Shown here one piece after another: positions 661-36,077 of a stretch of 44,073 bases of DNA. The notes below the pieces were generated by a model. The model worked only from the letters and a program-made list of their open reading frames with translations. It ran no database searches and had not been told where the DNA came from. The DNA comes from an uncultured Candidatus Saccharibacteria bacterium (lineage in GTDB: Bacteria; Patescibacteriota; Minisyncoccia; Phycocordibacterales; G965230995), in NCBI GenBank assembly GCA_965230995.1, contig OZ246398.1, forward strand, positions 1 through 44,073. Direction: 5' to 3'. A program made the position numbers and the translations under genes. How positions within the stretch are numbered: the stretch's first letter is position 1; each line of letters opens with the position of its first letter.

Positions 661-2817
661 CTAAACATTAAATCTTTCGTTGATAATTCCCTTCTTAACT
701 TCAAATATTTTTGATGTAAATACATGCTCATATGTCTCGTCCAGGTTCTTTCTTTCAATTTTTATGTAATATTTGCCATTTGGAACCAAACAGAAGTATC
801 TTCCGCTCTTGTCGGCAATCTTGTGAGCTATTTCTGTGTTCAATTCTGCAGAAATTATTCTAACAACAGCAAAAGATAGCGGATCTCCGGTCTTTGAATC
901 ACTTATATACCCATTTGCTTTTGGTTTAAGACCAATAATTCTCAAAATAAGCAACGCAACATACAAAGCAAAAGTAATTATATTGTATGGTTGTGGAGCA
1001 ATGAACAATGCAATGACTGCTATTACAAAACCAACAGCGAACAAGACACTCGCAATTTTTGCAAAGACATAGTCGAACCTTGAATAGAATCTCATCAATT
1101 TTTTATTCTTCTTTGCGAATTCGTTCCAGTCGAATTTTACTGGGTCCATAGGAATACTTTTTATTATCAAAGCTCCGGTAGTTGGAATATCGATTGTCTC
1201 TCCAAAATATAGATTAGAATACAATTCATCAGAAAATCTTCCCGCTAATCTATCTGAAGGGAATTTGTAGTTTGTTTTATTTGCAATCATCTTGTATTTT
1301 CCAGCTTGAAGCAAGAAACCATATCGTCCATCTAGGTCAGTAATAGAAGAGCTAACTTCTTTTCCATTTTCATCAACCAAAACTACGTACGCAGGATCGA
1401 GAGGTTGTTTTGTAATACTGTCATACACAGTTCCCCATGGTTTAAATCTTCTCTTTAGACCGAGAAAGGTTAGGAGCAATGTCCATATTCTAAATGGAGC
1501 AAGTGCAAGTTCAGAAAAAGAACTTGGATTAAAAAACGTAGTAGAAACAGCAGCAAAAGATCCGGTGACGACTCCGGCAGTAGAAACTGTTTTAACGACT
1601 GTTTCTCCTACTGGATCTGCATAGATTTTTTTTGCCACATCATAAGAATCAAGAGCGACCGTTCCAACTGCGACATAAGTATTTTCGATTGCATTACCAA
1701 TTACAGGAGGTAAAATACTTTGAGTGAAGGAAACAACCACACTCGGCACTGATATATTGTTATTATTTGATGGCTGATTGATTAGAGGATTTTCTTCTGG
1801 TGGTAATTGCCCATAAACACAATTTCCATAAGCGTCTCTAACATAACCTTCTGGTAAAGTTGTTTGTGAACCAGAAATATTTGGACACAGATCAGAATCT
1901 TCTGGAATTATACAGTTACCAAAACCATCAGTTGTATATCCATCAGGAATTTGCGTCTGTTCTCCAGAAATATTTGGACAGACATCTAGTGGATCCTCTG
2001 GTAATACACAGTTTCCGAAGCTGTCTAATATATATCCTTCGGGCATTGCGACTTGATTACCCGCCAAATTCGGACACGAATCATTTATAAGTTCTGGAAC
2101 TACACAATTTCCAAATTCATCAAGAACTAATCCAGAAGGTATTGTGGTTTGAGCACCTCCAAGATTAGGGCAAACATCTACAATAGGAATTTCAGGAGGA
2201 AGAACTGGTGGAACAACAGCTACGCCCGGAGAAGATTCGTCAGTATCGAGAAGCGAAGAACATCCATTATCATTTGGATAATCTGTTTGACCATCACCAT
2301 CATCATCTACACTATTATTACAAGCAACTGCTGTAGTTCTAGAACTTGCAGGTCTCCAATCTGTTGCGACTTTGTGGTTTGATGTAGCACAAGAACTATC
2401 TGTCGTACAATTAAAAACAATCCAACCATAATTCTGACTCCATGCATAACCAGAAAAATTACCAGACGAATCAATTGTCACCCCGCCATTAGTAGGATCA
2501 AAATTTATCCAACCAGTATTTTCTCCCCAAGCATAACCAGACAGATTTCCTTCGGCATCATTATCGACACCGCCATTTGTTGGGTTTAGATTTATCCAGC
2601 CAACAGATTCACCCCACGCGTATCCTGTGATTCCACTATCAGTAATAGCAACATTACCGTTTGTTGCGCCAAAGTTTATAAAACCAAGATTACTATTTAA
2701 AAATCTCGCATATTTATTTGTACTATCAATTGTGCCGTTTGTTGAAGAAGCAAATGCTATCGATGCAAAAGAGATTAATACACCAAAAAAGAAAGCAATC
2801 GTCCTAATTGATCTCAT
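661..2817 (-). CDS. Multidomain surface/membrane protein (GYAW repeats, Cys-loop repeats, TM segments, two carboxypeptidase-regulatory-like beta domains)
   Basis: Signal peptide; three GYAWxxxxGWI repeats; DDDGDGQTD Ca-binding-like motif; four D.CPN..G.Q...P.G...D..GNC repeats; TDLDGRYGF and ADKSGRYF beta-sandwich motifs. Confidence 0.8.
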   Translation of the reverse strand: MRSIRTIAFFFGVLISFASIAFASSTNGTIDSTNKYARFLNSNLGFINFGATNGNVAITDSGITGYAWGESVGWINLNPTNGGVDNDAEGNLSGYAWGENTGWINFDPTNGGVTIDSSGNFSGYAWSQNYGWIVFNCTTDSSCATSNHKVATDWRPASSRTTAVACNNSVDDDGDGQTDYPNDNGCSSLLDTDESSPGVAVVPPVLPPEIPIVDVCPNLGGAQTTIPSGLVLDEFGNCVVPELINDSCPNLAGNQVAMPEGYILDSFGNCVLPEDPLDVCPNISGEQTQIPDGYTTDGFGNCIIPEDSDLCPNISGSQTTLPEGYVRDAYGNCVYGQLPPEENPLINQPSNNNNISVPSVVVSFTQSILPPVIGNAIENTYVAVGTVALDSYDVAKKIYADPVGETVVKTVSTAGVVTGSFAAVSTTFFNPSSFSELALAPFRIWTLLLTFLGLKRRFKPWGTVYDSITKQPLDPAYVVLVDENGKEVSSSITDLDGRYGFLLQAGKYKMIANKTNYKFPSDRLAGRFSDELYSNLYFGETIDIPTTGALIIKSIPMDPVKFDWNEFAKKNKKLMRFYSRFDYVFAKIASVLFAVGFVIAVIALFIAPQPYNIITFALYVALLILRIIGLKPKANGYISDSKTGDPLSFAVVRIISAELNTEIAHKIADKSGRYFCLVPNGKYYIKIERKNLDETYEHVFTSKIFEVKKGIINERFNV

Positions 2818-2876
2818 ACACTATTATATTATCAGTTTGGCACATTTTTTAATACTCAAAGTTATTCACACACGTT

Positions 2877-3344
2877 TTAAAGATAAAAAACGACAATATC
2901 ACCAATATTAATTTTTTCCTTTTCTGCCGTACCCGCATTCAATTCTATAATATAAGTAGCGGGACTTTGCGGATAAAAAACATTAGGAAAGCTTTCTGGC
3001 AATGCATTTTCTTTAATATCTATTACCTTTTTTTCTGCATCTAACCAAATAATATCGATTGGAAAATTCATATCTTTCATCCAGATCCCATATTTGTCTG
3101 GATTGTTGTATATAAAAAGCATACCGTAATTTTCTCCCATTTTAATCACACCGGACAAACCTTTGGTTTTTTCAGTTTGAGTTTCGCTTTTTTTAAGGAA
3201 AAAAATATTTTCTCCAATATTTGCAGTCACACATTTATCACAAACATATTCAATATGTGTAACCTTTTTAGGAAAAAATAGTACGATAATCGTAATTGCA
3301 ATCAATACAAAAAATATTTTGATAACCCATTTCATCCAAACCAT
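2877..3344 (-). CDS. DUF192 family protein
   Basis: GLS...GMLF...GIWMKDMNFPIDIIWLD...YIIELNAG...IGD pattern; N-terminal TM helix. Confidence 0.9.
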   Translation of the reverse strand: MVWMKWVIKIFFVLIAITIIVLFFPKKVTHIEYVCDKCVTANIGENIFFLKKSETQTEKTKGLSGVIKMGENYGMLFIYNNPDKYGIWMKDMNFPIDIIWLDAEKKVIDIKENALPESFPNVFYPQSPATYIIELNAGTAEKEKINIGDIVVFYL

Positions 3345-3350
3345 AGTATG

Positions 3351-3971
3351 TTATTTGTGCTTTCTAACGTGATACCAAATTGGCCAAAGTAACAATGCCC
3401 CAACAGTACCAATAACGACGCTTATAACAATCAATTTTTCAAAGCCGAGCGTCACTGCAAAATATCCTCCAATTGCAGAAAAGCCAGCACTTGTGAGATC
3501 AGTAAGAGAATAATACGAACCCCATTCCATTCCTTCCTTTTCTCTATCAATATGCCGTGTAAAGATAGCCATGAAGCTTGGAAAGGTAAAGGCGGTCAAA
3601 AGTCCAGTCAAAAACTGAACTATGTAAAGTTCAAGAGGTGTGTCTATATACAAATACGCAAGAGGTAAAATAGCAATCGCAACAGTAAACACAAACATTA
3701 TCCAGAAATCATCTTTTTCTCCTCGAATTTTATCCAGTACATATGCAATAGGAATCTGGAGACCACTTTTTGTAAATAGATATATTGCAGCAGCCACCCC
3801 AGCAACAGCTTCGTTTCCTCCGATTATAAAGTCATTTATGTATAATGCAAAAATTGGACCGAGAAGAGCCATACTTCCGATAAAAATAGTATCGGAAAGC
3901 ACCATAAACCTAATCACAGGACTTACATCTTTGAAAAAATTAAATTTTAGTCTTGCAAGTCTGGTTTTCAT
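3351..3971 (-). CDS. Half-size (about 6 TM) MFS-type transporter
   Basis: 206 aa hydrophobic ORF; motif-A-like LDKIRGEK; A.FTRHIDREKEGMEWG typical of the MFS N-half. Confidence 0.75.
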   Translation of the reverse strand: MKTRLARLKFNFFKDVSPVIRFMVLSDTIFIGSMALLGPIFALYINDFIIGGNEAVAGVAAAIYLFTKSGLQIPIAYVLDKIRGEKDDFWIMFVFTVAIAILPLAYLYIDTPLELYIVQFLTGLLTAFTFPSFMAIFTRHIDREKEGMEWGSYYSLTDLTSAGFSAIGGYFAVTLGFEKLIVISVVIGTVGALLLWPIWYHVRKHK

Positions 3972-28312: not shown

Positions 28313-29563
28313 TTACGCGTTTTTTCCGGCCACAAAACCAGTAGTCCAACAAAGCTGGAGCGAATATCCGCCCGAAGGTCTCGTGATATGAAGCAAGTCC
28401 CCAGTTACAAAAAGGTTATTGAAAAGTTTTGATTTCATCGTGCGTGTATCTATTTCTTCCAAAATTACACCGCCGTCGGCAACAACCGCCCTATCAAAAC
28501 CCATTAAATGAGAAACGGTTAGGGGTAAGGCTTTTAGCAATCTAACAATAGTTTTTCTGTCTTCTTTTTTAATACTATGTACTTTTGTTTCGAGTAATTC
28601 TGGGCTTATTATTTTCGATATTCCAGACGAAGTACCTTCCGGCACAATTTCTTTTAAAACATTTTTTAGAGTTTTGTTTTTATTTTTATCAAAAACATTG
28701 ATTATATTTTTTTCGAGAGATCCCAAATCTGTATGCGGAAAAGTGTCTATTTCGCAAGTCACCCTGCCTGCCTGAAGCATTTCACCGACTTCTTTTGCTG
28801 AATTCAAGATTAGAGGACCAGATAAACCAAAATGGGTAAACAAAATTTTTCCCATTTTTGAAAACTGTTTTTTATCATCGAGAAAAAAAGTAATTTTCAT
28901 AAATGATAGAGAAACTCCGGCGAGAGTTTTGGACCATTCTTCTTTTGTTGCAATCGGAACTATCGCAACTGTTGGTTTTTTAACTGTGTGTCCTAAATTT
29001 TGAAGCCAAGAAAAACCATCGCCCGTTGATCCGGTTTCTGGATGTGACATTCCACCAGTTGCGAGAATATAGTTTTTTCCTCGAATCGTTCCTTCATTTG
29101 TGATAACACCGCTTATCGTATCTTTTTCAAAAAGTATTTTTTTAACTGTTGTATTTGTTTTGCAAATAACCCCGAGATTATTTAATTCTTTTTTGAGCAA
29201 ATTTACCACATCAATCGCCTTTTCTGTTTTTGGAAAAACTCTATTTCGCGCTTGCGTCTCTAGAGGCAATCCTCTTTTTTCAAAAAAATCAAAAGTATCT
29301 TTTACGCCGAATTGCGAAAATGGTGAATACAGAAAATCTTCTGCCTTTCCAAATTTAGAGAGAAACTTTTTTATATCAAATTCTGCGTTAGTGATATTAC
29401 ATCTGCCACCACCTGTTATCTTTAATTTTTCTCCAAGATTTTTGTTTTTTTCAAGTATAATTACCTTCTTTCCACTAAGTACAGAAAAAATCCCGGCAAA
29501 CATCCCCGATGCTCCGCCACCGATTATTACAACGTCGTAATTAACTTTTTCCACAATAGACAC
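28313..29563 (-). CDS. HI0933/YhiN-family flavoprotein
   Basis: GGGASG, KLKITGGGRCNITN, TGSTGDG, LFTHFGLSGP, GGYSLQLCWTTG. Confidence 0.93.
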   Translation of the reverse strand: MSIVEKVNYDVVIIGGGASGMFAGIFSVLSGKKVIILEKNKNLGEKLKITGGGRCNITNAEFDIKKFLSKFGKAEDFLYSPFSQFGVKDTFDFFEKRGLPLETQARNRVFPKTEKAIDVVNLLKKELNNLGVICKTNTTVKKILFEKDTISGVITNEGTIRGKNYILATGGMSHPETGSTGDGFSWLQNLGHTVKKPTVAIVPIATKEEWSKTLAGVSLSFMKITFFLDDKKQFSKMGKILFTHFGLSGPLILNSAKEVGEMLQAGRVTCEIDTFPHTDLGSLEKNIINVFDKNKNKTLKNVLKEIVPEGTSSGISKIISPELLETKVHSIKKEDRKTIVRLLKALPLTVSHLMGFDRAVVADGGVILEEIDTRTMKSKLFNNLFVTGDLLHITRPSGGYSLQLCWTTGFVAGKNA

Positions 29564-30011: not shown

Positions 30012-30779
30012 TTAAAACAAAACAAAAAAGAAAATCAGAGCAATGAGAATTCTATAAATACCGAAGGCAATAAAACTTCTTTTTTGAATAAATTTCAGCA
30101 GAAATTTTATTGAAAACATCGCAACAAAGAAAGAAACAACAAAACCAGCTGCAAGAACAGAGAACTGTGATATCTCGAATTCTTTGTAGCTCTGGAGCAG
30201 ATCAAAACCGCTAGCAGCAATCATTGTTGGTACAGCCAAAAGAAAAGAAAATTCAACAATGGTTTTTCTCTTTAACCCAAGAAACAACCCACCGACAATC
30301 GTCGATGCCGAACGAGAGACACCAGGCACAACTGCGAGAGCCTGAAATAGTCCAATCAAGATCGCGTTTTTATAAGAAGGCATACCACCATCTTCATCTT
30401 CTTTGTCTTTTTTGAAATGATATTTTTCAAAAATAATCAAAAACAAACCGCCGATTGCGAGTGCCCAAATGACAACAGAAGGATTTCCGATCAAATATCC
30501 TTTTATAAAATCATACAAAACAAAGCCAATAATGGCAGTTGGTATAAAAGCTGACGAGACTTTTTTAATAGTCTCAATTTTGAAAATAGTTTTCCAATAC
30601 AAAAATATTACCGAAGAAATTGCACCGAGTTGAATTATTATCTCAAAGCTTTTTGTAAAAACAGTCTGCTCTATTTTTAAGAGCTCGCTTACAAGTATTA
30701 AATGCCCAGTCGAAGAAATGGGCAAAAATTCTGTTATTCCCTCTACGATACCCAAAACAATACTATGCCAAATTTCCAT
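30012..30779 (-). CDS. uppP: Undecaprenyl-diphosphate phosphatase
   Basis: LGIVEGITEFLPISSTGHL, IQLGAI, PGVSRS. Confidence 0.97.
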   Translation of the reverse strand: MEIWHSIVLGIVEGITEFLPISSTGHLILVSELLKIEQTVFTKSFEIIIQLGAISSVIFLYWKTIFKIETIKKVSSAFIPTAIIGFVLYDFIKGYLIGNPSVVIWALAIGGLFLIIFEKYHFKKDKEDEDGGMPSYKNAILIGLFQALAVVPGVSRSASTIVGGLFLGLKRKTIVEFSFLLAVPTMIAASGFDLLQSYKEFEISQFSVLAAGFVVSFFVAMFSIKFLLKFIQKRSFIAFGIYRILIALIFFFVLF

Positions 30780-30810
30780 CACTACATAATAACGCAATTA
30801 ATGTCCCAAG

Positions 30811-31562: not shown

Positions 31563-32189
31563 CTATTTTTGTATAAAATTAATTGCTTTATCTTTAATAA
31601 AAATTGCTTGATTATCACAGAGATAAAATAACGCTGTTTTATATTTTGCAACATCATCAATTACTTTTTTGTTACCCTCAGAAAAATCAGCATTGTCCGC
31701 GTGTGGCATAATTAAAAAATCCAGCAAACCTAGACCAGAAAAATCATTAATATTTTTAATTATCTCAATTTCCTCAGGATCATTTTTATCTACCGACAAG
31801 TCACCAGAGACAATCATAGAACCAGCACTTGTGCCTGTATAAATTATTTCGTCTTTTTTTATTGCATCAACCAGCGAATCTTTTAGTCCTTTCTTTTTGA
31901 TTAGATCAATTAAATAGAAAACACTACCACCACAAAAATGTATAATGTCTGATTGCTTTAAAAGTTTTTCAAAATCTCCAGCTGATAGCAATCGCAAATC
32001 TGCTGTAATAACCTCTGCACCAAGTCTTTCATATGCTTCTCTATCAACTCTTATCCACCATTTATCTTCAACATCATCTACATCTGAAGCATTTTCTATA
32101 AAAATAACTTTTTTACCAATCACATCTCCAACACAATCTACCAGCTTCTCTGCTGTTTGATTAAAAGCAGAAGCAAGAAATAATTTCAT
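31563..32189 (-). CDS. Peptidase E (S51) / class I glutamine amidotransferase-like protein
   Basis: DIIHFCGGSVFYL, YTGTSAGS nucleophile elbow, GLGL...MPH. Confidence 0.88.
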   Translation of the reverse strand: MKLFLASAFNQTAEKLVDCVGDVIGKKVIFIENASDVDDVEDKWWIRVDREAYERLGAEVITADLRLLSAGDFEKLLKQSDIIHFCGGSVFYLIDLIKKKGLKDSLVDAIKKDEIIYTGTSAGSMIVSGDLSVDKNDPEEIEIIKNINDFSGLGLLDFLIMPHADNADFSEGNKKVIDDVAKYKTALFYLCDNQAIFIKDKAINFIQK

Positions 32190-32520: not shown

Positions 32521-32919
32521 CTACAAATCACTAGTTACCCCATCAAAAGTTTCGTCGTCTTTTTCTGCTTCTGCTTTTGTCTGGTGCATTACACCGTCTC
32601 TGTGATTAGGAGGAGCATAAACAGTATACAATTTCAGATGGACATTTTCTGATGTGTTCATAATATTATGTTTCGCTCCGGCAGGAACAACCACTGCAAA
32701 GCCATCTGAAAGCTGATGCTCTACCCCGTTGATAATAGATTTTCCACTACCAGCCTCGCATCTTATGAACTGATCGAGCTCGTGTGTTTCTTCACCGATT
32801 TCTTCACCAGGTTTTAAACACATAATGACAAGCTGACAATTCTTTGCTGTGTACAAAACACGACGAAAATATTCGTTTGTTAATGTTTCTCTCTCTAGAT
32901 TTAAACTGTATCCTTTCAT
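32521..32919 (-). CDS. Cupin domain protein
   Basis: GEEIGEETHELDQFIRCEAG...VVVPAGAKHNI...LKLYTVYAPPNH. Confidence 0.92.
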   Translation of the reverse strand: MKGYSLNLERETLTNEYFRRVLYTAKNCQLVIMCLKPGEEIGEETHELDQFIRCEAGSGKSIINGVEHQLSDGFAVVVPAGAKHNIMNTSENVHLKLYTVYAPPNHRDGVMHQTKAEAEKDDETFDGVTSDL

Positions 32920-32953: not shown

Positions 32954-33841
32954 TTATTCTTCAAAATGTGAAAATAGGGACAAAACACCTGCTATGTTTT
33001 TTTGAAAATCTGTATCAGTATGATTTTTTAATTCAACTGAAAATGCAGGCACGCCAATTTTTGCAAGCCAATCATCCGCCGCTCCGGTAATAGCATAAGC
33101 ATCAAAAGATTTTGCTACAGGATAACCGGATGCTTTTGAATATTTTGTCACAATATCTGTAGTCTCTTTCAAAATACCTTTTTCACATTGTGATGTGTAA
33201 ACAGCATTTGATTGACTATGCCAAAATACTACAGCCACTGGCTTTGATTCGATTATGTAATCTTTGAACACTTCTGATTCTGGTTCAGAAAAAGGTTCTT
33301 CCCCACTACTGACTTTTTTTGATCTCCAGACACTTTCTGGTTCCCACTTACAATCAAAGTTTCTGTTTAGATCTACCTCGTTTGAATTAAACCTACCCGA
33401 AGCCAAGACAGCGTCATTTTCAGAAACATCTGATATCTCAAATCTTCCTTCTTTTTTTGTAACCCTAAACAAGCCATCTGGGTTCATAGCAGGTATCACA
33501 TCTACCCTGACGTCTGAAGGAATCTTTGAGAGGTTTTCTGACAAATAATCGATCATTTCATAAGCAAGAGAAACGGTATTCCATTCGTATCCACCATGTA
33601 TTCCACCAACCAAAGTTATTACCTTTTTACCACTACCAAAAGAATATTTTTCAATAGCCAAACCTTCTTTCGAATTTCCAATCACGCTTTTTTCAAAAGG
33701 AGAGCTTGGAACAATGACTTCGTTTTGATTATTTGTTTCCCCCTTTTCTTTTCCTGTTTGCAGGACCACTATTCCAATAATAATTAGAATTATTACAACA
33801 ACTAAAACAACTAGTTTCCTTTTAACAAAGAACCCCAGCAT
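32954..33841 (-). CDS. M14 zinc carboxypeptidase (MpaA-like), active-site residues intact
   Basis: HGGYE, DLNRNF, FSEPES, FWHS, SVEL; N-terminal TM. Confidence 0.88.
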   Translation of the reverse strand: MLGFFVKRKLVVLVVVIILIIIGIVVLQTGKEKGETNNQNEVIVPSSPFEKSVIGNSKEGLAIEKYSFGSGKKVITLVGGIHGGYEWNTVSLAYEMIDYLSENLSKIPSDVRVDVIPAMNPDGLFRVTKKEGRFEISDVSENDAVLASGRFNSNEVDLNRNFDCKWEPESVWRSKKVSSGEEPFSEPESEVFKDYIIESKPVAVVFWHSQSNAVYTSQCEKGILKETTDIVTKYSKASGYPVAKSFDAYAITGAADDWLAKIGVPAFSVELKNHTDTDFQKNIAGVLSLFSHFEE

Positions 33842-34755
33842 TATTTTGCGTAGTATTTTAGAACAGCTTCAACTCCGGCTTTGTTTTTTGAGAACTCAGT
33901 GCTTGTGTGGTTTGTAAGGAGGATGCTTATTGCAGGAACTTCTATTTTTGCTAGCCAGTTTGTCATATCACCTGTTGTCTCGTAGAAATCAAAATCTTGA
34001 TAAGCTTTATATCCTGACGCTTGAGCATATTTTTTAACTAGATCATTTGTTTCTGTTGATACACCTTTGTGGCAATTCGAAGCAAATACACCACCAGCAG
34101 CACTGTACCAAGCAATCACTGCAACCGGCTTATTTTTCTCTACATAATTTTTTATCGCCAAAGTCTCTGGTTCTGAAAAAGCTTCTGTTCCACCACTAAC
34201 TGTTTTCGCTTGCCATTTTGCATTTTCTTGCCAATCACAATCAAAGTTTCTGTTTAGATCAACATTGTTTCCATTGAACCTGCTCGCTTTTAGAACTTCT
34301 GAATCAGAAGTCACGTCTTTTGCTGTAAATTCTCCGGCTGTACCGACAGCCTTCTTTAATCCATCTGGGTTAAGAACTGGTATGACTGAGACTTTTACGT
34401 TTGCAGGAATAGTCGTTGTACTTTTCTTGAAATATTCCATCATTTCAAAAGCAACGAGTGAAGCGTTCCAGCTGTATCCACCGTGTGCACCACCAACCAA
34501 AACAATTTCCTTCTCACCTTCTCCAAAATGATATGCGATTATATCTTCACCACCGACTGATTTACCAATTACTGTTTTTGTTTTATCAACCGGAGCCGTT
34601 TCTACAGGCTTTTGTTCTTCGCCTGTATTTTTAACTGTTTCTTCTTGATTATTTTTCTGTGTGTTGTTTACGGTGTCAGAAGAATCTTTTGTAAACAAAT
34701 AAATACCCAAACCAATTATAATAATTACTACCGCCCAAATGATGACTTTTTTCAT
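33841..34755 (-). CDS. M14 carboxypeptidase paralog, probably inactive
   Basis: HGGYS, DLNRNF, FSEPET, WYSA, SILL; N-terminal TM. Confidence 0.85.
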   Translation of the reverse strand: MKKVIIWAVVIIIIGLGIYLFTKDSSDTVNNTQKNNQEETVKNTGEEQKPVETAPVDKTKTVIGKSVGGEDIIAYHFGEGEKEIVLVGGAHGGYSWNASLVAFEMMEYFKKSTTTIPANVKVSVIPVLNPDGLKKAVGTAGEFTAKDVTSDSEVLKASRFNGNNVDLNRNFDCDWQENAKWQAKTVSGGTEAFSEPETLAIKNYVEKNKPVAVIAWYSAAGGVFASNCHKGVSTETNDLVKKYAQASGYKAYQDFDFYETTGDMTNWLAKIEVPAISILLTNHTSTEFSKNKAGVEAVLKYYAK

Positions 34756-34844
34756 ATATACACATTATATCACGCGAGCAAGGTACGCGACCCTTTAAAA
34801 AATCATTTTTTATGTCCTAAAAAGTGATATTTTTAGGCAAATCT

Positions 34845-35135
34845 CTAGATTATAAACACCAAGACAACAAACAAAGCCACAAAACAAGCAAATATTCCTA
34901 GGGTTTTTCCAAAGAAAGCTATCGATTCTTTTTTCTTGCCATCCACGAGCAAACATAGAGGTTCATAGAGGAACAAAAATCCCATTACAGCGACAGACAG
35001 AACAAATAAACTGAGCATTGCCATAGGCATTAATAGATTTTCCTCTGGCAATAAGTTACTCGTATAATTCATTCCCAATACGATTGTGACAATATAAACA
35101 ATCGCAACCAATGCATATAAAAATGGTTTTTTCAT
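34845..35135 (-). CDS. Small 3-TM membrane protein
   Basis: 96-aa hydrophobic ORF (MLSLFVLSVAVMGFLF.YEP...GKKKE). Confidence 0.75.
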   Translation of the reverse strand: MKKPFLYALVAIVYIVTIVLGMNYTSNLLPEENLLMPMAMLSLFVLSVAVMGFLFLYEPLCLLVDGKKKESIAFFGKTLGIFACFVALFVVLVFII

Positions 35136-35138
35136 ATA

Positions 35139-35474
35139 TTAATTTTTAATCTTACCTAATGACGAATAAACAAAAGCCAGAAAAAACCTAACGACCAAAA
35201 CAAGGACTATGAAAATCAAAGAAATACTAACCCATATTGGAAAATCTGGCACGTCGCTATTACAGCTCATTTCAGCCCAACATTTATATCCAAATATTTT
35301 ATAGACAAATGAGTAAAATGGTAACAATACAAAAAGAACAGTAAAAAATATTATTTTCTCGATTCTAAAAAAATAATACAACTGATCTGGTAAAAATCTC
35401 GCCTCGGTTGCAAAAGAGTAAAATAATAGAGAAACCAATACAATACTTATGATTATTAATATAATATTTTTCAT
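35139..35474 (-). CDS. Small membrane protein
   Basis: 111 aa, 3 TM; TGATATAAT 6 nt upstream of the ATG. Confidence 0.7.
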   Translation of the reverse strand: MKNIILIIISIVLVSLLFYSFATEARFLPDQLYYFFRIEKIIFFTVLFVLLPFYSFVYKIFGYKCWAEMSCNSDVPDFPIWVSISLIFIVLVLVVRFFLAFVYSSLGKIKN

Positions 35475-35795: not shown

Positions 35796-36077
35796 CTAAA
35801 TTATACCTTTCTTTTCTTTAAACCACTTTTTTGCGTTTTCGTTACTATGCGGACATCCCGGCCAACAACACGGCCTACGTTTGCCTTTGAACAAATCGCT
35901 TTGCAATCTCTCTAAATGTTGTTTGCGTGTTTCTTCATTTTTTACAATTGTAATCCAGCAAATCCATTCATTACGAGCAAGCGGTGTTAGGCCATCCCAA
36001 ACAGACAAAAGTTTTTTGTCTGAAAGCAAAATCTTTTTTAAATCGTCTGGAATTTTGTGTTTTGTGCCGTGCTTCAT
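35796..36077 (-). CDS. YdeI/OmpD-associated family protein
   Basis: IPDDL...W..LTPLARNEWICWI..K.EETR...L.KGKRRPCCWPGC.H. Confidence 0.88.
   Translation of the reverse strand: MKHGTKHKIPDDLKKILLSDKKLLSVWDGLTPLARNEWICWITIVKNEETRKQHLERLQSDLFKGKRRPCCWPGCPHSNENAKKWFKEKKGII

Follow-up and report, generated by a model that had tools for sequence, protein, structure and literature searches.

A conserved operon pairing an intact M14 carboxypeptidase with a catalytically degenerate paralog in one order of Paceibacteria

A main way for bacteria to control dangerous wall-cutting enzymes is to give peptidoglycan hydrolases pseudoenzyme partners, as with EnvC and NlpD for amidases and Csd2 for Csd1; no such partner is known for the M14 carboxypeptidases. 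In Helicobacter pylori, Csd1–Csd2 combines an M23B/LytM peptidoglycan endopeptidase with a degenerate paralog, and the structure of the heterodimer has been solved (PMC5053510). A comparable division of labor is known from the alpha and beta subunits of M16 processing peptidases—bacterial two-gene operons included—for which a heterodimer is proven and the inactive subunit provides a substrate-binding loop (PMC11266112). Here, we describe a pair of adjacent M14 genes in a 44,073-nucleotide stretch of DNA from an uncultured bacterium (contig OZ246398.1 of assembly GCA_965230995.1, positions 1 to 44,073 of the forward strand; hereafter, the window): the downstream gene is predicted to encode a catalytically intact carboxypeptidase and the upstream gene a pseudo-carboxypeptidase (for brevity, the active and the dead copy). 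With moderate confidence, we read the dead copy as a non-catalytic, substrate-gripping partner or regulator that works beside a stem-peptide carboxypeptidase in a two-gene operon.

Within the M14 family itself, pseudopeptidases have been described in eukaryotes, namely AEBP1/ACLP, CPXM1, CPXM2, domain III of CPD and yeast Ecm14, all of which act by binding and not by catalysis (PMC11266112). AEBP1, CPXM2 and CPD domain III lack His196 and Glu270 (N/Y, Q/Y and D/Y, respectively), and Ecm14 carries E270K; a 2024 review of metallopeptidase pseudoenzymes includes no bacterial M14 case among those it names (PMC11266112). On the catalytic side, Csd4/Pgp1 is an M14 D,L-carboxypeptidase (PMC4220969).

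An intact and a degenerate M14 protein in tandem

The genome that contains the window is a single contig of 742,714 bp and has exactly two M14 genes, which share one base:

33841–34755, minus strand: upstream gene, membrane-anchored pseudo-carboxypeptidase of 304 aa (open reading frame (ORF), Pfam M14, AlphaFold/Foldseek, residue mapping)
32954–33841, minus strand: downstream gene, membrane-anchored M14 carboxypeptidase of 295 aa, predicted to be catalytically intact (ORF, Pfam M14, AlphaFold, homologs)
33839–33843, minus strand: TAATG stop/start overlap of one base (sequence; the same in 39 of 76 related loci)

Both products score above the cut-off (21.6 bits) of Pfam PF00246 (Peptidase_M14)—the downstream protein with 81.5 and the upstream protein with 68.7 bits—and are 46% identical to each other over 270 residues. 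Base 33841 belongs both to the upstream stop codon TAA (33843–33841) and to the downstream start codon ATG (33841–33839), and the resulting TAATG on the coding strand suggests that the two genes may be translationally coupled; a terminator scan found none between them. In the AlphaFold models, each protein begins with a hydrophobic helix (residues 2–22 in the dead, 3–29 in the active copy) that has neither a lipobox nor an obvious cleavage site and would fit a signal anchor. Ahead of the anchor, the upstream protein has Met-Lys-Lys only and no cytoplasmic output domain, and in both proteins a linker of ~35 residues, modeled with low confidence, separates the anchor from the M14 domain. Two cysteines (C173/C228 in the dead, C164/C219 in the active copy) are invariant in each clade—74 of 74 each, counted, as are all residue states below, in the 74 genomes from which both genes were recovered—and suggest a disulfide, consistent with an extracytoplasmic location. 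A sequence-only reading of the window had described membrane-anchored paralogs overlapping by TAATG at 33841, and the reading frames, the overlap and the N-terminal helices bear this out.

AlphaFold2 predicts for each protein an N-terminal helix, a low-confidence linker and a compact alpha/beta domain (predicted local distance difference test, pLDDT: 85.9 for the dead, 91.3 for the active copy). Foldseek matched both models to carboxypeptidases A, B and T, TAFI and MpaA at a probability of 1.00, with TM-scores of 0.55–0.70 to carboxypeptidases A, B, T and MpaA, placing both in the carboxypeptidase A-type alpha/beta fold. The top target-normalised TM-score (0.67–0.70) was to MpaA; sequence identity to any solved chain is ~20%, and no close solved relative was found. 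We rejected MpaA as the identity of either protein, because their scores with the MpaA equivalog model (NCBIfam NF007897), 33.6 and 37.3 bits, are far from its cut-off of 157 and the match covers the C-terminal half only.

The two proteins part at the catalytic residues, which we numbered as in carboxypeptidase A and mapped by single-sequence and profile alignments to the solved carboxypeptidase B 7eqx:

34105–34107, minus strand: TAC codon of Tyr217 at the His196 zinc-ligand position, dead copy (Tyr in 71 of 74 dead orthologs)
33919–33921, minus strand: CTC codon of Leu279 at the position of the general base Glu270, dead copy (Leu in 70 and Ile in 4 of 74)
34471–34473, minus strand: codon of Ser95 at the Glu72 zinc-ligand position, dead copy (variable within the clade)
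33218–33220, minus strand: CAT codon of His208, the His196 equivalent, active copy (His in 74 of 74)
33032–33034, minus strand: GAA codon of the general base Glu270, active copy (Glu in 74 of 74)

In the alignment, the histidine of HGGY[ES] falls on His69 and, the reference being gapped by one residue, the last residue of the motif on Glu72; W[HY]S falls on His196, [VI][EL]L on Glu270, DLNRNF on Asn144/Arg145, and Y..TG..(D/N)W on Tyr248. The downstream protein holds the complete set of zinc ligands (His69, Glu72, His196) and general base, in the motifs HGGYE (H82, E86), FWHS (H208) and SVEL (E270). At the same places the upstream protein reads HGGYS (H91, S95), WYSA (Y217) and SILL (L279); it keeps His69 and has serine, tyrosine and leucine in place of Glu72, His196 and Glu270. 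The clamp formed by Arg127, Asn144, Arg145 and Tyr248 is present in both (R150/N159/R160/Y249 in the active, R159/N168/R169/Y258 in the dead copy).

This division extends to the orthologs. The active copy is invariant at H69, E72, R127, N144, R145, H196, Y248 and E270, and the dead copy retains H69, R127, R145 and Y248 in all genomes and N144 in 68 of 74; the sole drifting position of the dead copy is Glu72 (E in 49, S in 15, A in 9 and G in 1 of 74). At no more than six alignment columns are the clades each conserved yet distinct from one another, and His196 and Glu270 are two of them; K270, T98 and G188 of the dead copy are examples of conserved residues specific to its clade. His196 (Y, rarely F or D) and Glu270 (L, once I) are both missing from all 120 of the upstream protein's closest matches in the database, and all of the 120 nearest homologs of the downstream protein retain H-E-N-R-H-E. 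The dead clade is therefore defined by loss of one zinc ligand (His196) and of the general base (Glu270), and Ser95 in the window is a secondary, lineage-variable loss. Because it has neither the His196 ligand nor the Glu270 base, the upstream protein should be unable to hydrolyse peptides by the M14 mechanism. It does preserve its clamp for the C-terminal carboxylate of a peptide. Since the losses of His196 and Glu270 are fixed family-wide in the dead lineage of 74 pairs, they do not represent sporadic decay.

All six motifs had been called correctly from the sequence alone, as had the retention of the substrate-binding motif in the upstream copy, with R127, N144, R145 and Y248 essentially invariant. 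The accompanying claim, that the upstream copy lost two zinc ligands and the general base, holds for this genome (S95, Y217, L279) and, across the clade, for His196 and Glu270; it does not hold across the clade for Glu72, where glutamate is the most frequent residue.

Conservation of Tyr at position 196, His229 (62 of 74) and Lys270 is specific to the dead clade, and one might take it as a sign that the upstream protein is still an enzyme, which catalyses a new reaction via, for example, Tyr217, His229 and Lys270. But with Glu72 lost in a third of the orthologs and His196 in all, no conserved metal site is possible, the leucine at the base position is chemically inert, and no known catalytic constellation is recognisable, so we regard a new enzymatic activity as highly improbable.

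In both copies, the first motif departs from the textbook arrangement: H-G-G-Y-E is one residue longer than the canonical H-x-x-E, and the downstream protein consequently lacks the canonical spacing of its first two zinc ligands (HGGYE is encoded at 33584–33598 and HGGYS at 34471–34485 of the window). The H-x-x-x-E spacing, together with all other catalytic residues, is kept in 98 of the 150 best-matching cluster representatives; because it is conserved throughout the subfamily, it is probably functional in the active copies.

Origin, selection and conservation of the pair

We built a maximum-likelihood tree of 166 domains, comprising 50%-identity cluster representatives, 14 sampled pairs and the pair of the window. 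The dead domains of Paceibacteria are monophyletic (33 tips, support 0.99) and the active clade is their sister (support of the parent node 0.947), which indicates that a single, ancient tandem duplication in one order of Paceibacteria (Patescibacteria/candidate phyla radiation, CPR) gave rise to the pair.

At least 568 loci in species-representative genomes contain a dead-type relative, and metagenomes hold thousands of loci; of the former we took the best 80, of which 79 were analysable. The dead gene precedes the active gene on the same strand in 76 of these loci, the three exceptions being contig ends, and the dead reading frame is intact in all 79. At the junction, 39 of the 76 pairs share the one-nucleotide overlap, and most others have a gap of 0–12 nt. 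Adjacent paralogs, one with a degenerate active site and both conserved together, were thus found in 76 of 79 loci and in ~97 of the 113 genomes that bear the family. These 113 come from 401 genomes of the window's order; ~97 have two copies, and in every genome of the order for which both coordinates are listed the two lie ~100 bp apart. Across the phylum, of which 400 genomes were sampled, the pair occurred only in the window's genome and in one other of the same order and nowhere outside that order, the remainder of the sample yielding distant single M14 domains of 30–40% identity. The genomes with dead-type loci bear the names Zambryski-, Taylor-, Nomura-, Kaiser-, Yonath-, Jorgensen-, Wolfe- and Vogelbacteria.

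Both genes are under purifying selection. For ortholog pairs with a synonymous divergence (dS) below about 2, the ratio of nonsynonymous to synonymous divergence (dN/dS) is 0.03–0.11 for the dead and 0.07–0.14 for the active gene. Across 2701 genome pairs, mean ortholog identity is 67.7% for the dead and 64.4% for the active copy, and the dead domain is the more conserved twin in 78% of them, a lead that may be slightly inflated—and to that extent counts against our reading—since the dead profile was used to pick the best-matching loci. Catalytic residues that are gone, and a Glu72 position that wanders among E, S, A and G, would also suit a functionless duplicate in decay; an intact frame in every locus, the low dN/dS, a dead copy more conserved than its active twin, and a monophyletic dead clade spread across many candidate phylum-level names have already refuted that explanation. 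Together with His196 to Tyr and Glu270 to Leu replacements across the clade and the operon in 76 of 79 loci, they support the upstream copy as a true pseudoenzyme, not a decaying gene. The sequence-only reading had proposed a pseudoenzyme on the basis of this one genome; the conservation of the pair and the purifying selection on its dead copy, both within one order, agree with it.

Peptidoglycan context and the role of the dead copy

Among the 79 loci, the only recurrent neighbor of the pair is a VanY-type D-Ala-D-Ala carboxypeptidase, which lies within 5 kb in 22 loci and directly upstream on the same strand in 11. In a domain-fusion survey of a representative library of 1.84 billion proteins, intact HGGYE-type domains were fused to LysM (P0260, P0299), to M23 plus LysM (P0268) and to an SLT lytic transglycosylase domain (P0331). 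Given these fusions of intact relatives and the frequently adjacent VanY, peptidoglycan stem peptides are the likely substrate of the active copy. A D-Ala-D-Ala ligase gene (Ddl) follows the pair in one locus (L006), and UppP/BacA is encoded 2 kb from the pair in the window. The window's genome has one VanY, away from the pair (at about 179.8 kb), and no YkuD transpeptidase. As side observations, the neighboring VanY proteins (L019:3998–4930, L030:5209–6165 and 20 further loci) have an N-terminal anchor and a coiled-coil region, and in P0299 an HGGYE-type M14 domain stands in tandem with a canonical HGDE-type one, ahead of LysM.

The genes around the pair in the window are the following, none of them conserved beside the pair in other genomes:

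28313–29563, minus strand: HI0933-like flavoprotein
30012–30797, minus strand: UppP/BacA
31563–32189, minus strand: S51 dipeptidase-like peptidase, 750 bp downstream of the pair
32521–32919, minus strand: cupin
34845–35135 and 35139–35474, minus strand: two small proteins with multiple transmembrane segments and without a family
35796–36077, minus strand: OmdA/YdeI-like protein

CPR bacteria are auxotrophs, the structural matches of both proteins are the digestive carboxypeptidases A, B and T, and an S51 dipeptidase-like gene stands close by; these points would accord with a nutrient scavenger, that is, a surface carboxypeptidase and its binding partner freeing amino acids from external peptides, unrelated to peptidoglycan. 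We consider this improbable, as the domain fusions of intact relatives all involve peptidoglycan modules, the one recurrent neighbor is VanY, and the S51 gene does not stay with the pair elsewhere.

In the arrangement we favor, both products would be type-II membrane proteins, in which a disordered linker of ~35 residues joins the N-terminal anchor to the extracytoplasmic M14 domain. The active copy would be a competent zinc carboxypeptidase that most likely trims stem peptides of the cell's own peptidoglycan by their C-terminal residue, and the upstream protein, made from the same message via the TAATG overlap, would probably be a non-catalytic peptide-binding subunit or a regulator of the enzyme—for instance by holding or selecting stem peptides, or by positioning or restraining its active twin. 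The strict gene order and the stop/start overlap speak for a joint function of the twins, and since nothing but Met-Lys-Lys reaches into the cytoplasm, any effect of the dead protein must lie outside the membrane.

That an inactivated domain of this subfamily can serve as a binder is suggested by analogy with a second, separate dead clade of HGGY-type M14 domains in the same library (12 representatives, support 0.999, signature HA...[E/G/L]...L). In most members, the dead domain is C-terminal, behind a predicted transmembrane helix that is preceded by a Ser/Thr kinase (P0370, P0390), an nSTAND1 NTPase (P0374, P0377, P0378) or a TIR domain (P0358); a further member, P0354, carries leucine-rich repeats. 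This architecture looks like that of a transmembrane receptor whose ligand-binding domain lies outside the cytoplasm, and its association with kinases, STAND NTPases and TIR is what makes a dead M14 domain seem usable as a ligand sensor. Leucine at the base position was reached convergently in the two dead clades, and we rejected a single origin of all dead domains, as the tree separates the two. The source sequences of the second clade are metagenomic (JGI, ENA, Logan).

These stand-alone sensor modules, the retained carboxylate clamp and a dead-only locus in one genome (G756), beside a large surface protein whose repeats look peptidoglycan-binding by eye, also bear on another proposal: that the dead copy is no enzyme subunit but an autonomous, membrane-tethered receptor or lectin for peptide C-termini, which masks stem peptides or recognises the wall of a host. 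Against it, the near-universal gene order and the stop/start overlap would be difficult to account for if the dead copy had no functional tie to its active twin, there is no cytoplasmic output domain, and the short linker holds the dead protein near its own membrane, so that we think an autonomous binder rather unlikely. For its host-directed version, nothing in the data indicates a host. The sequence-only reading had raised recognition of a host cell wall by an episymbiont, and nothing supports this part of it: both proteins are tethered by ~35 residues to the membrane of their own cell and the context genes—VanY, Ddl and UppP—concern the cell's own wall.

The dead-only gene of G756 (L094, G756:C12:15500–20500; 2513–3373, minus strand) encodes a pseudo-carboxypeptidase with the motifs HGAYSY, WYSS and SVLLT. 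It is situated downstream of the gene for the surface protein, which exceeds 526 aa and has the repeats at its C-terminus, and upstream of LemA and TPM-like genes. The converse case, a lone intact HGGYE-type M14 gene, occurs in G014 (L009, 1354–2265), where it follows genes that, by eye, encode a GDSL/SGNH-like hydrolase and an FtsX-like permease.

Several points weigh against a partner or regulator. The pair is absent from ~72% of the genomes in its order, and is accessory for that reason. G014, a genome 97% complete, is active-only, with no dead copy anywhere, and G756, 89% complete, has a dead-only locus and no active twin there; because of these two, neither twin can be strictly dependent on the other, which weakens the case for a heterodimer and for the obligate partnership that the sequence-only reading had offered as one option. 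A natural fusion of a dead and an active domain was sought, and none was found: open frames of 600 aa in G016, G035 and G038 were rejected as fusions, being two separate ORFs in the same frame, and so were the two-domain proteins P0299 and P0384, which contain two intact M14 domains of the HGGYE and HGDE subtypes. The stem-peptide substrate is deduced purely from context, the score to the MpaA equivalog lying far below its cut-off; physical association of the two proteins is something we infer, as is ligand binding by the dead copy. Finally, we know of no demonstration that the H-x-x-x-E spacing of this subfamily binds zinc.

A broader and more tentative idea joins the two dead clades: dead HGGY-type M14 domains may form an unrecognised class of bacterial extracytoplasmic sensors for the C-termini of peptides (muropeptides). 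The Paceibacteria module would then stand alone, be co-translated with its active twin and read the cell's own stem peptides so as to gate their trimming, and an independently inactivated version would be wired by a transmembrane helix to kinases, STAND NTPases and TIR domains in other bacteria. If true, this would be the first bacterial M14 pseudopeptidase as well as a new input domain for wall sensing; the parallel dead domains suggest such a wider class, which is a possibility we rate below that of a partner or regulator of the active twin. On either account, a dead M14 protein has long been retained in genomes of ~0.7 Mb, where little is dispensable. Having kept the residues that grip the substrate and lost those that cut it, it offers a clean and testable case of an enzyme turned reader, and through the pair one can begin to ask how CPR bacteria shape or sense their wall.

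Remaining features and comparison with described systems

The two M14 genes share an identical stretch of DNA:

34237–34260, minus strand: 24-nt block encoding DLNRNFDC, dead copy (identical to 33350–33373)
33350–33373, minus strand: 24-nt block encoding DLNRNFDC, active copy (identical to 34237–34260)

This block had been noticed from the sequence alone and is present as described. Its naive probability is ~0.0045 under the codon usage of the window. Among 54 other genomes with the same eight-residue motif in both paralogs, four match at 24 of 24 nt and most at 20–23 of 24, so the identity is real yet unremarkable. On the strength of these four genomes, and of same-codon use across the two window genes (67 observed versus 56.8 expected), we rejected gene conversion as its origin. 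Antisense ORFs of ~90 aa within both M14 genes (33264–33548 and 34265–34531, plus strand), which recur in 36–48 related loci, were likewise rejected as genes; they are shadows of the conserved coding strand. By eye, a possible extended −10 element, TGATATAAT, occupies 34764–34772 on the minus strand, its end 8 nt short of the upstream gene's ATG, and no Shine-Dalgarno sequence is visible near that start. A −10 at TGATATAAT would mean a leaderless or very-short-leader operon mRNA, which is possible; a consensus promoter scan found no −35/−10 pair at 34764–34772 and nothing over shuffled expectation.

A search of full-text literature found nothing relevant to a bacterial M14 pseudopeptidase, the HGGYE motif, the present pair, or nSTAND1/STAND proteins with a carboxypeptidase domain. 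The pair probably adds a pseudoenzyme partner of a wall hydrolase, which is a known kind of protein, in a family and a phylum without a described case. It has the same family and the same kinds of loss in common with the eukaryotic M14 pseudopeptidases; these differ in that they lost the Arg127/Arg145 clamp, which is kept here, and in that no active twin is encoded next to them. It also shares the M14 fold with Csd4/Pgp1 and with the murein tripeptide amidase MpaA (PDB 4axv/5hxd), both of which act on stem peptides; their zinc-ligand spacing is different (HxxE in MpaA and QxxE in Csd4, as opposed to HxxxE here), and neither has a dead twin.

The PASTA-domain Ser/Thr kinases PknB and PrkC are muropeptide-sensing receptor kinases, and it is only the second dead clade that resembles them, with a cytoplasmic kinase, a transmembrane helix and an extracytoplasmic domain that, in PknB and PrkC, binds wall fragments. 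The sensor of those kinases is PASTA and not a dead M14 domain, and the protein of the window has no output domain. The M16 alpha/beta peptidases belong to a different family with a clam-shell architecture; like the present pair, they may be encoded as an operon of inactive and active paralogs of one metallopeptidase family, which in M16 form one working unit. As for Csd1–Csd2, both systems consist of adjacent paralogous genes for peptidoglycan metallopeptidases (a likely assignment in the present case), one of which has a degenerate metal or catalytic site, and the dead paralog of H. pylori is regarded as a stabilising partner of the active one. They differ in family—M23 there, M14 here—and in that the association of the present pair is read from its genes, its members are predicted to be membrane-anchored, and its bearers are CPR bacteria.

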